Assembly: GCA_964429215.1 (NCBI GenBank)
Contig: CAYSAY010000004.1
Span: 8,421 to 72,420 of the forward strand
Origin: an uncultured Gammaproteobacteria bacterium
GTDB lineage: Bacteria; Patescibacteriota; Microgenomatia; UBA8517
Direction: 5' to 3'
DNA length: 64,000 nucleotides
This document shows positions 2,825-12,941 of this stretch, one piece after another; position 1 is the stretch's first letter; each line of letters opens with the position of its first letter. A program made the position numbers and the translations under genes. The notes below the pieces were generated by a model. That model ran no database searches, was not told the origin of the DNA, and was given only the letters and a program-made list of their open reading frames with translations.

Positions 2825-5428
2825 TTAAGCAGTAGTATCTTCAATTAACGCAACTGTCGTTGTATAACCAGTTGAAGTTAAAGTACCAACAGTTGATGCT
2901 GGATAATATTTAGTAAATCCATCTGAAGATTTTCTAACCCTTATATATATCCCTACATTACCTGAATATTCCACATATTCAGTAGCTATACCACTAGCGT
3001 TAGTATCCTCATTCATAAGTTGCACATCTGTATCGTCCCTATAAACTGCAGTTTGTGCATTTACAATTATATTATTATTTTTATCAACAACAGTAATAGT
3101 TACAGGTACAATCTCCAAAGGATACAAATTATCAGTTTGAGAGGCGAGAGTAGAGGTTGTTGCAATTCTTATATAGGTTAGTAAATTTGTTGTCGAAGTT
3201 GTTGCACAAACTATCCTGTATTTTAATTTAAATCCTGTTGAAGCAGATATTGTTTCACCTGATAAATTTGTAGCAGTTAAATCTTTCCATGTTCCACCAT
3301 AACCACCACCTGTATCAATTTGATAATAAATATTATGGTTGCCCCATGTTGGGCCCGATGAATAGGTGACATTTGTTCCTGTAACAATTGGTGCAGTGTT
3401 TGTCAGGGCTGTACATCCTTTAACAAAATATCCTTGTTCAATTATAATTTCATCGTTTATGTTTGGCATATATAAATTTCCTGCAGAAGTAAAAACAGGA
3501 TTACCAGCTACATAAGTAACTAAACTTGTTGTTTCTGTTGTGGGCTCATTCATTGAAAGAACTACTCGCCCAGCGGTATCAGAGGTAAATGCATCCCAAA
3601 AATGAGTTCCATAGACAGATACTTGTCCTGTTGTTGTATTTGTTCCACCACAGTTTTTAATAACAGAGTTTAAATCTGCTACTGTTATGGTGTCTCCCAT
3701 GTCACCATAAACATGTTCATAGGTCATATTTTTGTCAGAGTTAATTGTGGAAATTGCGCCTGTTCTTGTTGGTGTCATATAAATTCTTTGAAGTTTAACT
3801 GTGTCGTTATTTCCTGCTGAAACAAAAATATATGCAGGGTTGTTTGCTGATCCACCCGATAGAGCTGTTGTCCTGCTACCAACGTTTCTAAGTTTAATGT
3901 TTGACGATTGTCCAACATTAAATATTCCTAGGTACGGATGCACATTTGCAATTGTACCTAAAAGCCCAAAAGTTACCCCATCAACTAAAATATTGTCAGA
4001 TGAAGCTAGTATGTAAATTGTATAAATTCCAGTTGTATTTGTGGTACTAACATATCTGTCACAATGGTCGAAGTCGTTTATTGTACAGTCAAATGATGAG
4101 GTGATTTGGAGCGAGGAGTTAAAGGAATAACAGTTATTTAAAGTAATATTACGAGATTGGGTAATCTGAAAACTCATTCCTGTTGATCTCGCAAAAGTGA
4201 TAATTCCACTTTTAGTGTTACTAACTGTAATATCTTTACAATATAAAATTTCAAAAGCATGATCTGTTGTACCTGCTGAAAATCTTTGGAAATCACAATT
4301 TGCTATTGTTCCTCCGGCGAAACAAGAAGTTGCGTTAAAGGTTCGTTGGTCGATTGACTGTGATGTTGAAGTCCCAAAATTATTAATATCTAAAGCAGTT
4401 GCCACCTCAGATAATAACAAATAATCAAAAGTGGAGGAGTTATGCGTACGAATCAAGTATGGCTGGACAAAGCTTAAATACCAATCTGTTGCAAAATATT
4501 CCATATCAATAGCACCGGCTGATGTTGTGACAAAGTCTGGTCTTGTTCCAGCTGTTGCACTTGGAATAGTATTTGTTGCCCTAGCTGCTGTTGTGCATTG
4601 TCTGCCTAAAATGTTTGGTATTCTTACCTTACATCCCGATGCTGGTACATATCCAACTGTCGTTGTTCCATTATGCCCGATTCTAATATTTCCATTTGTT
4701 TCCATGCAGACAAACTTACTTCTTGCATCAGTTCCTAAATTTGTGGTTGTCATTCCACCTGCATATAATGATGGATAATATTCATAAACATTACTACCAG
4801 AAGATGTTTCAATCCAAACACCTGGAACATAGGCAGTAGAACTGCCGTTTGTAGGGATTTGGATAAGTTGGTTTGCAGCACCTGATGTATTAGAAAGATA
4901 GAACCAAGTCCCTCTTGTTTGGAATTTTCCCAACCTCGGGACAGTTATAGCAATCGATTGATCATGAACGACTTCAATCCAACCAGCAACATCAGCCCCA
5001 CCTGCAGTAGCAGCACCAGCACCACTAAATGTTAAAGCTCCAGCACTAAATGTACCACCTGTGACTTCTCTGAGCTTTATAAACCCTGTAGCCCCAATTG
5101 TTGCAGATGGGGTAGCAGTTAAATTTGACCAAAAACCTAAAAAGTAACCTGAAACACCACCCTGACTAACTGTATCTCCTATTGCAGGTGTTCCGCTTCC
5201 ACCTGTAATTGCAAGCCATCGCACACTTGTTGCATCTATATAATATCCTCCACCTAAAGTTGCAGAAATAGTAACAGCACCCAAGCTACCTGTCATTGAA
5301 GCAGGAGAGTTCGCATGCCATCTTGTGTCCGTCCTGACTGTTAGGACCCCACCGTTACATGTCCATGTTTCGCCGGCAGTTCTTGCCGTGCCTCCATCCA
5401 AGAAAGTATCTGTAGTTATTGTGGCCAT
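2825..5428 (-). CDS. 867-aa Thr/Gly/Ser-rich beta-helix-like fibre protein; no signal peptide
   Basis: Composition and repeated short beta-strand motifs. The C-terminal ~80 aa (VQLMNEDT...YIRVRKSS.G.TKY.P.ST.GT.TSTGY) is paralogous to the C-terminus of the 1492-aa protein. Confidence 0.55.
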   Translation of the reverse strand: MATITTDTFLDGGTARTAGETWTCNGGVLTVRTDTRWHANSPASMTGSLGAVTISATLGGGYYIDATSVRWLAITGGSGTPAIGDTVSQGGVSGYFLGFWSNLTATPSATIGATGFIKLREVTGGTFSAGALTFSGAGAATAGGADVAGWIEVVHDQSIAITVPRLGKFQTRGTWFYLSNTSGAANQLIQIPTNGSSTAYVPGVWIETSSGSNVYEYYPSLYAGGMTTTNLGTDARSKFVCMETNGNIRIGHNGTTTVGYVPASGCKVRIPNILGRQCTTAARATNTIPSATAGTRPDFVTTSAGAIDMEYFATDWYLSFVQPYLIRTHNSSTFDYLLLSEVATALDINNFGTSTSQSIDQRTFNATSCFAGGTIANCDFQRFSAGTTDHAFEILYCKDITVSNTKSGIITFARSTGMSFQITQSRNITLNNCYSFNSSLQITSSFDCTINDFDHCDRYVSTTNTTGIYTIYILASSDNILVDGVTFGLLGTIANVHPYLGIFNVGQSSNIKLRNVGSRTTALSGGSANNPAYIFVSAGNNDTVKLQRIYMTPTRTGAISTINSDKNMTYEHVYGDMGDTITVADLNSVIKNCGGTNTTTGQVSVYGTHFWDAFTSDTAGRVVLSMNEPTTETTSLVTYVAGNPVFTSAGNLYMPNINDEIIIEQGYFVKGCTALTNTAPIVTGTNVTYSSGPTWGNHNIYYQIDTGGGYGGTWKDLTATNLSGETISASTGFKLKYRIVCATTSTTNLLTYIRIATTSTLASQTDNLYPLEIVPVTITVVDKNNNIIVNAQTAVYRDDTDVQLMNEDTNASGIATEYVEYSGNVGIYIRVRKSSDGFTKYYPASTVGTLTSTGYTTTVALIEDTTA

Positions 5429-5448
5429 ATTCCTATTTCATTAAAGCA

Positions 5449-5808
5449 TTAGCTTTTGATATTTCTAACTGCTTTTTTAACAAGTTCGTCTAAGTCTAAT
5501 TCGCTTTTGACAATGTATTCAATAGCTCCAATATGCATCTCTTCATCATTGGGTAAGTTTGATGCAACAATTACAGGAATTGTATTCACTCTCTCGTCTG
5601 ATTTAACTTTTCTTAAAAACTCATAGCCATCAATACCAGGAAGTAAAATGTCTAAAATTATTACATTTGGAATCCATTTTTTAAGAAGTTCTAAACCTTC
5701 CTCTGCAGTTCTGACTGCTCTGACTGTAAATTTATATTCTTCAAATTTATATAGCATTGCCTTTGATATAAATTTGTCATCCTCTATAATTAAAACCTTT
5801 TTTTTCAT
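5449..5808 (-). CDS. response regulator, receiver domain only (CheY-like)
   Basis: KVLIIEDD ... ILDILLPGIDG ... receiver-domain motifs; 119 aa with no output domain. Confidence 0.85.
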   Translation of the reverse strand: MKKKVLIIEDDKFISKAMLYKFEEYKFTVRAVRTAEEGLELLKKWIPNVIILDILLPGIDGYEFLRKVKSDERVNTIPVIVASNLPNDEEMHIGAIEYIVKSELDLDELVKKAVRNIKS

Positions 5809-11927: not shown

Positions 11928-11930
11928 ATA

Positions 11931-12941
11931 TTATTTTTTTCCTTTCATTAATTTTTTAACAAAGTTATCAAAATCTGAAACGAAGTCTTTGTCTTGTGCT
12001 ATTTTATATTTTTTATATTCTTTTAAAACTAATTCCTCTGCAACTTTATGACTAATATTACCAGCGTTATTTAATATTTCATATTCACTAAATTTTAAAA
12101 ATGCGTTAAGTTTTGTTATCCAATCTTTCATTGTCATAGCTTTTTGTCGTGCTGTTTGCATTTCTGCATAATCTAAATACATATTTCCAATTCTATCTAG
12201 GTGTTCAAGCTCTTTTTTATTAAGATAATTTTTAGCAATAATTACATCGCTTGGCAATATTTTTCCAATTGGCGATTTTCTCCAAGAAGTGAGTCCCATT
12301 TTTTCTTTTTTACTGCTTGCTCGCTCTGTTATTATTTCTGCTGCAGTTTGACCTGTAATTGCAAAATGTAGTTTATTTTGAACAGTTGCAAAAAAATCTT
12401 TGCTTTCAGGTGTATTTGGGGAATAATCAACACTTGTTGCATAGATATCAGTAATTTTTTGGTAGATTCTTCGTTCACTGGTCCTGATATCTTTTATCTC
12501 TTCATAGAGATCTTCAAAATACATTGTGCTAAATCTTGAACCATATTTCATGCGATACGAATCTAATGCATAGCCCTTTTGAATATAACTTTTTAAAGTA
12601 TTGGTGGCCCATTGACGAAATTCAGTGCCCTTTACCGAATTTACACGATAGCCAACGGCAATTATTACCTCTAGTCTGTAAAAAGTTACAAGACGATTTA
12701 TTTGTCGACCTCCTTCGTTTTGAACTACCGAGAATTCCTCGGCAGTTGAATTTTTATCTGCTTCATTTTCTTTAAAAATATTTTTAATATGAAGCGAAAC
12801 ATTATCAGCTGAACATCCAAAAAGTTCTGCTATCTGTTTTTGAGACAACCACATGTTTTCATCAACATATTTAACCTCTACATTTACTGAACCATCGGAT
12901 GACTGGTAAAAAGCAATTTGATTATCTGGTAGTTTTTTCAT
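11931..12941 (-). CDS. RhuM-family (Virulence_RhuM) DNA-binding protein
   Basis: N-terminal signature VKYVDENMWLSQKQIAELFGCSADNVSLHIKNIF matches the RhuM family; 4-bp gap to the downstream giant gene. Confidence 0.6.
   Translation of the reverse strand: MKKLPDNQIAFYQSSDGSVNVEVKYVDENMWLSQKQIAELFGCSADNVSLHIKNIFKENEADKNSTAEEFSVVQNEGGRQINRLVTFYRLEVIIAVGYRVNSVKGTEFRQWATNTLKSYIQKGYALDSYRMKYGSRFSTMYFEDLYEEIKDIRTSERRIYQKITDIYATSVDYSPNTPESKDFFATVQNKLHFAITGQTAAEIITERASSKKEKMGLTSWRKSPIGKILPSDVIIAKNYLNKKELEHLDRIGNMYLDYAEMQTARQKAMTMKDWITKLNAFLKFSEYEILNNAGNISHKVAEELVLKEYKKYKIAQDKDFVSDFDNFVKKLMKGKK

Follow-up and report, generated by a model that had tools for sequence, protein, structure and literature searches.

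A chromosomal gene cluster of phage tail-spike descent joined to a sensor kinase-receiver pair in a Microgenomates bacterium

The 64,000-nucleotide (nt) stretch of contig CAYSAY010000004.1 (assembly GCA_964429215.1) analyzed here, hereafter the window, carries a minus-strand gene group in which two large β-rich proteins of 867 and 1492 amino acids (aa), named A867 and B1492, flank a sensor histidine kinase (HK) and a single-domain receiver (RR). A867 evidently descends from bacteriophage tail-spike genes, B1492 is a mosaic whose core is also found in phages, and the group is the window's share of a larger cluster, conserved in relatives, that is built from bacteriophage tail-tip genes. We favor, tentatively and with less than even confidence, the explanation that these proteins are exapted phage spikes, which would bind or cut polysaccharide outside the cytoplasm after a release independent of the Sec pathway, with the HK-RR pair tuning them post-transcriptionally.

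The group comprises five co-directional open reading frames (ORFs) in the order A867-RR-HK-B1492-RhuM, with gaps of 20, 12, 5, and 3 nt, and all five lie where a preliminary description of the DNA had placed them (Table 1). The window also encodes LeuRS, ArgRS, ComEC, MreB, and two transfer RNAs, and it is therefore a piece of a Microgenomates chromosome (Candidate Phyla Radiation, CPR, or Patescibacteria) and not a phage contig. Relatives of B1492 are located in metagenome-assembled genomes (MAGs) of Levyibacteriota, Roizmanbacteria, and Microgenomates. Promoter and terminator scans returned counts equal to the shuffled expectation and are uninformative on operon structure. Related loci are cited below by L numbers, L112 being the window's own genome past coordinate 1.

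The AlphaFold model of the A867 monomer is confident, with a predicted local distance difference test score (pLDDT) of 90.8 and a predicted template modeling score (pTM) of 0.84. It is composed of N-terminal β domains (aa 1-~300), a right-handed parallel β-helix of the pectate-lyase type (~300-620), a β-sandwich (~620-770), and a C-terminal module. Phage tailspikes and depolymerases rank first in a Foldseek search with this model, and the pectate-lyase/tailspike β-helix anticipated in the preliminary description is thus found. The sequence has no match in Pfam, PHROG, or the PDB, even with a 62-sequence profile, and belongs to no described tailspike family. The family is large, with more than 945 matches at 50-87% identity, and homologs up to 81-85% identical to A867 occur in 11 IMG/VR contigs. 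A-like genes are carried by genuine phages: L016 has an intein-bearing terminase, a P22-type portal, a capsid, and an SU10 adaptor; in L018 the gene follows TerS, TerL, and portal and is separated by further genes from those for major capsid, protease, and head morphogenesis; a portal, a capsid, and a lysozyme are encoded in L031; and in the circular 39.6-kb phage MW202577 the gene lies in the late structural region. Taken with the model, these contexts bear out the view of A867 as a phage-tailspike-like protein.

Most of 80 metagenomic loci of the A family (G+C 0.33-0.70) have either a pair of genes for 456-aa and 139-aa proteins downstream or a gene for a ~576-aa protein upstream. The identity of A867 to the copy in the low-GC phages L018 and L027 reaches 77-85%, N-terminal region included. 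In a neighbor-joining tree, the clade of cell copies that contains the window (L112/window, L003, L029, and L041) joins the low-GC phage copies L018/L035 and is nested among phage-context copies, while other cell copies (L030, L017, and L061) are placed elsewhere; this topology suggests several phage-to-cell transfers or slot replacements of A-like genes. All 62 invariant columns of a mixed alignment of phage and cell A-family members hold in the cellular proteins, the window copy included.

B1492 consists of D1 (aa 1-~215), R1, the β-sandwich D2, R2, a middle region, a short β-helix-like segment, an SH3-like segment (GDAIYYQDQGG...GLTDGTMYY), and the C-terminal module, in this order. R1 and R2, each of ~200 aa, form an internal duplication (62% identical, E 1e-80), and the short B forms, P0006 and P0007, lack R1. 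Proteins from several other phyla also contain D2, which in phage L009 sits inside the C-terminal module. No Pfam, PHROG, or PDB match was obtained with the sequence of B1492, and no PDB match at E<1e-3 in a Foldseek search with its model; fold matches to jelly-roll capsids and SlaB were set aside as too weak to use. The β-helix that had been attributed to both large proteins is robust in A867, whereas in B1492 it is limited to a short segment of low confidence (pLDDT 55-80), with weak Foldseek matches to GH87 and the Sf6 tailspike (E>0.01).

This segment is the region of B1492 best conserved (35% over 262 aa) with an 871-aa B-like protein of phage L009, a Planctomycetaceae MAG contig with TerL and portal. 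The phage protein contains the β-helix, the SH3-like segment, and the C-terminal module. Beside it, L009 encodes an 870-aa protein with 33% identity from end to end to the E proteins found in the CPR cluster described below, and in the same module a 279-aa protein similar to the N-terminal part of the 433-aa β-helix protein of that cluster. The homologs of B1492 examined are P0002-P0011. A word-indexed search gave 11-26 proteins; HMMER, run exhaustively from P0006, a short form, yielded 1554 B-family cluster representatives at E<=1e-3, upon which the notion of a rare family was dropped. For the locus scan of the B family an 11-sequence alignment worked, a 37-sequence alignment being too divergent. 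At 20 IMG/VR loci (L115-L133 are among the viral B-like loci), a B-like gene that matches from residue 1 either precedes the 456-aa and 139-aa pair or follows the 576-aa gene; the L124 contig also carries tape-measure and tail-assembly genes.

The C-terminal module common to A867 and B1492, of ~95 aa, is real: BLASTP aligns the two at 34% identity over 144 columns (E 1e-18), and hhalign of the A- and B-family profiles matches 59 columns at the module with a probability of 95% (E 3e-8). Outside this module the two families have no detectable homology, even profile against profile. A867 and B1492 are therefore not paralogs, as they had been called, their kinship being limited to the module. The Thr/Gly-rich composition ascribed to them is correct (T 16% and G 10% in each), and both are Ala/Ser-rich as well. 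The module of a 580-aa protein in L029 has weak CarboxypepD_reg/Big_1 matches, and the fold matches of the B1492 module to CnaB2/CBM20-type sandwiches are non-significant (E 0.33-0.53). Region-wise identities to A867 indicate that the module of the A family follows the cassette context and not the phylogeny of the body. For the cell cassette of L030, the body is 54-73% and the module 81% identical to A867; for phage L018, the values are 78-85% and 21%.

In phages, A-like and B-like genes are found in a slot, here called X, that follows the ~576-aa E-like gene or precedes the conserved 456-aa and 139-aa pair. Since they share this slot and its partner genes, the two are interchangeable occupants of one position in a phage tail module. 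The 456-aa and 139-aa pair itself, very widespread in phage tail modules, occurs after A-like or B-like genes in phages with G+C of 0.28-0.70 (for example, L016 13362-15151, L018 12597-14416, and L114 22564-24432). Neither protein of the pair has a Pfam, PHROG, or PDB match, and both are absent from the CPR cluster.

A conserved unit, consisting of a B-like or other C-module protein, HK, RR, and an A-like or short B protein, is present in L003, L004/L005, L006, L029, and L030 and is rearranged in L017 and L061. It forms part of a larger cluster with the order 164-aa multi-transmembrane (TM) protein, X genes, an E protein of ~810 aa, a set of two or three charged proteins of small size, ~275-aa protein, and ~433-aa Beta_helix protein, often with TatA/TatC. 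Positions 2825-11927 are the window's share of this cluster, which runs more than 10 kb beyond the window edge; there, L112 encodes TM164, AbiEii/AbiEi, AAA_14, E811, proteins of 141, 56, 75, and 275 aa, and bh432. B adjoins E in L008, and E adjoins A in L041, near TatC and housekeeping genes. The slot after RR is filled by divergent alleles according to genome, either A-type of different clades or short B. The gene order of the cluster is that of the tail module of phage L009 (B-like, E-like, 154 aa, and 279 aa). Of the phage genes that might have been expected outside the window, those of tail-tip type (E811 and bh432) are present past the left edge, whereas no head genes are found in ~10 kb.

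Such an order, identical to that of an entire tail-tip module in a phage (B-like, E-like, small genes, and bh433-like), together with the lack of signal peptides, would also fit the tail-tip locus of a dispersed domesticated particle of the gene transfer agent (GTA) or tailocin type, with head and tail genes elsewhere, release by lysis, and production governed by HK-RR. The GTA of Rhodobacter capsulatus (RcGTA) likewise has spike/fiber genes away from its main cluster and under host regulation, and one of these, TspA, is abundantly released and acts on biofilm (bioRxiv 10.64898/2026.07.19.739414). A particle of this kind is nonetheless very unlikely here. Among the larger ORFs of the window and in L112, scans with Pfam and PHROG detected neither terminase, portal, or capsid genes nor tube or integrase genes, and the same scans, over the window plus ~10 kb beyond, gave no sheath, tube, baseplate, or tape-measure genes; terminase, portal, capsid, tape-measure, tube, and sheath genes are thus missing within 61 kb on one side and ~10 kb on the other. 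When the window was searched by tblastn with the proteins of phage L016, A867 was the sole match, the 456-aa and 139-aa partners being absent. Furthermore, for CPR genomes, of about 1 Mb, carrying all the genes of a particle would be very costly.

HK is composed of a first TM segment (residues 8-39), an extracytoplasmic dCache_1 domain, a second TM segment (273-302), HisKA, and HATPase_c, while RR is a Response_reg domain (residues 5-112 of 119) with no output domain. These Pfam assignments agree with the two-component pair that had been recognized from the sequence. The pair is in the same position in seven loci (L003, L004, L006, L017, L029, L030, and L061). HK is only 53% identical to its L003 ortholog (L003 14504-16129), compared with 87% for A867, 78% for B1492, and 83% for RR (codon alignment; RR 85% by tblastn), and this faster evolution suggests a changing sensory input with a constant output. 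The proposal that the spikes are under two-component control is not supported, as RR, a bare receiver, lacks a DNA-binding output, and the position of the pair is within the operon instead of upstream of it. With no output domain in RR, transcriptional control is unproven and the linkage seen is only of a co-transcription-like kind. Elsewhere in the window, a second dCache histidine kinase and a receiver-only RR are separated by a 23S rRNA intervening-sequence protein (PF05635), of a family that also adjoins Tat genes in L029.

The G+C content of A867 and B1492 is 0.38-0.41 versus ~0.31, and the excess lies entirely in codon positions 1 and 2. Their G+C at third codon positions (GC3), 0.21-0.22, is host-like, LeuRS, ArgRS, and MreB having 0.24-0.27. 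The raised content therefore reflects amino-acid composition, and the native GC3 points to long-term residents and not to a recent island; with the locus also syntenic in related genomes, the name of island given to it earlier is not appropriate. Ratios of nonsynonymous to synonymous substitution rates (dN/dS) are 0.054 against L003 and 0.073 against L029 for A867, 0.092 against L003 and 0.083 against L004 for B1492, and 0.082 against L003 for RR, at a saturated dS of about 1.3-1.9. The cluster genes are thus under strong purifying selection.

A prophage was rejected on these ratios (0.05-0.09), on the kept synteny, and on the lack of an adjacent terminase, portal, capsid, or integrase in the scans of the larger window ORFs and L112. 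A decaying prophage remnant without function, with HK-RR as an accidental neighbor, would account for the phage origin of the genes and for the mobile and defense genes nearby, but it is effectively refuted and extremely improbable. Intact ORFs of 867-1596 aa are present in every relative, dN/dS is low at saturated dS, GC3 is host-like, and HK-RR synteny extends across divergence at the level of Levyi-, Roizman-, and Shapirobacteria, in three arrangements.

A Kyte-Doolittle scan shows no hydrophobic segment in A867, B1492, RR, or RhuM; the earlier statement that no protein of the group has a TM helix is correct for these four and wrong for HK, with its two TM segments. Hydropathy and twin-arginine-motif scans, with no dedicated predictor, found neither a Sec signal nor a twin-arginine motif in A, B, E, bh433, or the small paralogs, and Tat export of cluster proteins was discarded as no such motif occurs in any of them. 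The N-termini of A867 (MATITTD...) and B1492 (MAWVNDY...) are conserved from residue 1 in phage homologs, which makes a missed upstream signal peptide unlikely. On the hydropathy scan and these conserved N-termini, the large members indeed have no signal peptide. The core of the earlier idea of a domesticated phage adhesin/depolymerase module, tailspike-like proteins without export signals in a cellular genome, is therefore retained, and the other reading given with it, surface fibers that leave by an unrecognized route, may also apply.

Sec-exported S-layer or adhesin proteins, their signal peptides missed through wrong starts, would agree with the Thr/Gly/Ser-rich all-β composition, which is like that of surface proteins, and with weak fold matches to SlaB and pilin Ig-like domains. 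This possibility is largely refuted and scarcely probable, however, as the start codons lie 3-20 nt from the upstream genes, dozens of homologs, phage ones included, share the N-terminal sequence from its first residue onward, no hydrophobic segment is present, and Pfam finds no SLH, LPXTG, or other anchor domains in A867 or B1492.

The 164-aa protein contains hydrophobic segments at residues 1-30, 44-74, and 105-140 (30-36 residues; three to four TM helices), and its homologs lie beside the cluster in L003, L004, L008, L029, and L030. It has no Pfam match and no detectable homology to a holin family. TatA/TatC adjoin the cluster in L006, L017, L029, and L041, and in L041 only, a glucosaminidase-like gene, below the Pfam cutoff, adjoins the A-like gene. 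A 205-aa ORF of the window, unrelated to the cluster and the only one nearby with a Tat signal, has an internal canonical twin-arginine signal (ERRKFLKLIGAAGGSLFLMTIFTKSTEA, then AFFG), its annotated start being probably too far upstream; a homolog of this ORF is found 2 kb upstream of the L003 B-like gene.

RhuM (PF13310, E 6e-103; PADLOC defense candidate PDC-S05, E 1e-139), which had been counted as a member of the unit, is missing from the syntenic relatives L003, L004, L029, and L030 and present only in the same-population contigs L001 and L002. In L004, an fn3 gene directly faces the B-like gene. RhuM is a strain-specific insertion outside the conserved unit. The AAA_14/DUF4143 ATPase matches PADLOC PDC-S01 (E 4.5e-73) and the Fic gene SoFic (E 7e-18); just past the left window edge (L112 5612-8058) come another AAA_14 gene and AbiEii together with AbiEi, and L029 has an ORF6N gene in place of the ATPase. 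In its behavior the locus resembles a hotspot at which defense genes insert, and the defense-type genes RhuM, AAA_14/DUF4143 ATPase (more than one copy), and AbiE were inserted later.

An anti-phage role can be considered at this point, in which the spikes would strip or mask the cell's own receptor glycan, or co-assemble with incoming tails to give non-infective progeny, and damage to the envelope or released oligosaccharides would be the signal for the dCache kinase. The 77-85% identity of A867 to the L018/L027 phage copy, N-terminus included, speaks for it, and the absent export signals fit a cytoplasmic decoy. The junctions hold RhuM (PDC-S05), two copies of AAA_14/DUF4143 (PDC-S01), Fic (SoFic), and AbiEii/AbiEi, and the divergent alleles in the slot after RR look like arms-race turnover. 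Even so, we regard this role as unlikely. A867 and B1492 match no PADLOC model, and the neighboring defense genes are variable and not conserved partners, so that they amount to guilt by association only. Moreover, dN/dS of 0.05-0.09 indicates purifying and not diversifying selection, phage L018 is not known to infect this lineage, and a receptor-destroying role would still need export.

In the explanation that we favor, A867, B1492, and their partners would be made as phage-style spikes that fold, and probably trimerize, in the cytoplasm, and folding there would explain the absent signal peptides. The spikes would bind and probably cut polysaccharide, A867 through its β-helix, with the C-terminal β-sandwich and its hypervariable loop as the predicted ligand-binding tip. 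Once released by a non-Sec route, they would act beyond the cytoplasm, the target being a matrix or surface glycan that belongs either to the cell itself or to a partner cell. The candidate routes are the 164-aa multi-TM protein, which may be holin-like, or the Tat genes that recur as neighbors. The dCache kinase and the CheY-like receiver, presumably from the same transcript, may tune assembly, release, or activity through protein-protein contacts and not through transcription.

Several observations weigh against this explanation. The N-terminal ~300 aa of A867 are 83-85% identical to L018, as conserved as the rest, and if they form a virion-attachment domain, the cell copy perhaps still docks onto a phage-type partner. 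The model of B1492 has an overall pLDDT of 66.5 and is confident only in the R and D2 domains. In L008 and L041 the cluster lacks the HK-RR pair, which is thus not obligatory. In addition, the structural-type proteins of the cluster have no Sec or Tat signal, yet a 705-aa fn3 protein with an N-terminal hydrophobic segment and a TM-anchored 2577-aa fiber of the same genome are conventionally targeted, so a wholly intracellular role is possible.

A bolder form of the explanation we favor, which we hold to be distinctly unlikely, is that a whole tail-tip module of at least four spike/fiber genes, with no capsid or tube, has been exapted and an envelope chemosensor wired into it. The dCache kinase would sense an external cue, for instance oligosaccharides set free as a spike of a phage or of the cell itself cuts the surface glycan, the receiver would gate spike assembly or a release aided by holin or Tat, and the spikes would strip the cell's own phage receptor, as an inducible form of immunity, or cut a partner's envelope. 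If true, such cellular use of phage receptor-binding proteins, gated by a signal and free of any particle, would constitute a new class.

Table 1. Positions of the cluster genes, protein regions, and other features in the window
Feature	Position	Strand	Description
A867	2825-5428	-	867 aa, phage X-slot A family
A867 C-terminal module	2828-3109	-	aa 774-867, homologous to B1492 C-terminus
RR	5449-5808	-	119 aa, single-domain CheY-like receiver
HK	5821-7443	-	sensor histidine kinase
B1492	7449-11927	-	1492 aa, mosaic all-β, phage X-slot B family
B1492 C-terminal module	7452-7883	-	aa 1349-1492, β-sandwich with ~50-aa loop insertion
B1492 short β-helix-like segment	8148-8660	-	aa ~1090-1260, 3-residue strand runs in model
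B1492 R2	9180-9782	-	aa 716-916
B1492 D2	10098-10445	-	aa ~495-610, motif WEYWNGAW, β-sandwich, pLDDT 70-90
B1492 R1	10461-11063	-	aa 289-489, predicted jelly-roll-like β-sandwich, pLDDT about 85-94
RhuM	11931-12941	-	accessory insertion, operon 5' end
164-aa protein	192-686	-	three hydrophobic stretches; homologs beside cluster in relatives
AAA_14/DUF4143 ATPase	767-1987	+	Pfam; variable gene between A867 and rest of cluster
Na/Ca exchanger	2003-2728	+	Pfam; also in L029
Fic	15194-16246	+
Second dCache histidine kinase	20715-23045
23S rRNA intervening-sequence protein	23156-23503	+	PF05635
Receiver-only RR	23546-23947
205-aa ORF	23958-24575	-	internal twin-arginine signal
2577-aa ORF	27087-34820	-	tail-fiber-like
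279-aa ORF	45980-46819	+	adjoins ComEC
ORF in A867	4431-4778	+	shadow ORF
ORF in B1492	10450-10740	+	shadow ORF

Two plus-strand ORFs, one within A867 and one within B1492, are shadow ORFs and not genes; they look conserved in relatives because they are antisense to conserved coding sequence. The 279-aa ORF that adjoins ComEC matches phrog_14556 (E 3e-40) and phrog_7043, a tail protein (E 4e-32), and has no Pfam match; it may be a further phage-related gene in a cellular context. The 2577-aa ORF encodes a membrane-anchored, tail-fiber-like giant, with an N-terminal Phage_int_SAM_1-like domain (aa 7-77), a TM helix (135-154), a huge Thr/Gly/Ala fiber, and a Peptidase_S74 intramolecular-chaperone domain (2208-2263) that ~300 residues more follow. 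Within the fiber, a stretch of ~150 aa is duplicated almost exactly (WNALTAPDGALTLAMGVNPTTFGW...), and the protein, unlike A867 and B1492, has a TM anchor.

Upstream of the cassette in L029 (155-2405) and L030 (4077-6236) are four tandem soluble paralogs of ~172-180 aa (MAQTYTLSATGITLAANKAILGVFNGAGSGRVVRVYRVW...), which are not in the window. The 580-aa protein of L029/L030, which ends with the shared C-terminal module, has an N-terminal motif similar by eye to these ~172-aa paralogs (no BLASTP match at E 1e-4). An assignment of the paralogs as capsids of an integrated non-tailed virus was rejected, as there is no packaging ATPase and they do not occur in the window.

The locus is a concrete, testable entry point to CPR surface biology and CPR-phage interactions, both almost unexplored. 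Strong purifying selection is seen in an episymbiont-type genome of ~1 Mb, where each gene costs. Two large unannotated phage protein families are defined, interchangeable in one slot and found in phages of 28-70% G+C. The activities to be expected, as predictions, are glycan cleavage and phosphotransfer from HK to RR.

Compared with known phage tailspikes and depolymerases (Det7 gp208, K5A lyase, CBA120 TSP1-4, HK620 TSP, and phi297 gp61), the proteins of the window have no sequence match to a solved or PHROG-classified tailspike. Their genes are chromosomal without a virion gene set, share an operon with a two-component pair, and have host codon usage. Cellular β-helix enzymes (AlgE4/AlgG epimerases, GH110, PL6 lyases, and NosD-like proteins) have signal peptides or type I secretion signals and match Pfam families; A867 matches no such family, and its relatives are phage-encoded.

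Holin-dependent (type 10) secretion, as in Serratia ChiWXYZ, Clostridioides difficile TcdE, and Salmonella Typhi TtsA, exports folded signal-less proteins by way of a small membrane protein of phage origin, which acts alone or together with a muramidase. A possible likeness to it lies in the conserved 164-aa multi-TM protein of the CPR cluster and in the glucosaminidase-like gene of L041, the role of the 164-aa protein being conjectural. Tailocins (R/F pyocins) and extracellular contractile injection systems are domesticated phage tails under selection, without signal peptides and with non-Sec release, in which fiber genes set target specificity. The window locus has tail-tip-type proteins only, with no sheath, tube, baseplate hub, or tape-measure in the window plus ~10 kb.

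RcGTA is controlled by the CckA-ChpT-CtrA phosphorelay. Its tailspike TspA is an orphan chromosomal protein, host-regulated and abundantly released, that degrades the biofilm matrix (bioRxiv 10.64898/2026.07.19.739414). As in the window, this is a phage-derived spike in a cellular genome, away from head genes, and TspA acts on polysaccharide outside the cell, to the advantage of its producer (bioRxiv 10.64898/2026.07.19.739414). TspA belongs to a known particle with a head-tail cluster and the transcription-factor regulator GafA, whereas the window locus is from CPR, has no known particle genes, clusters at least four spike/fiber-type genes, and holds a kinase and an output-less receiver in its operon.

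In the literature searched, no paper was found that links CPR/Patescibacteria with chromosomal tailspike genes. To our knowledge, no CPR chromosome is described there in which several genes form a spike-only tail-tip module with a two-component pair embedded in it, while the domestication of phage tail parts is itself well known. The domesticated phage parts that we know of so far are whole machines, namely tailocins, GTAs, type VI secretion systems, and extracellular contractile injection systems. The CPR cluster would differ from these in being spike-only, with no capsid, tube, or sheath, and in being physically coupled to a sensor kinase.

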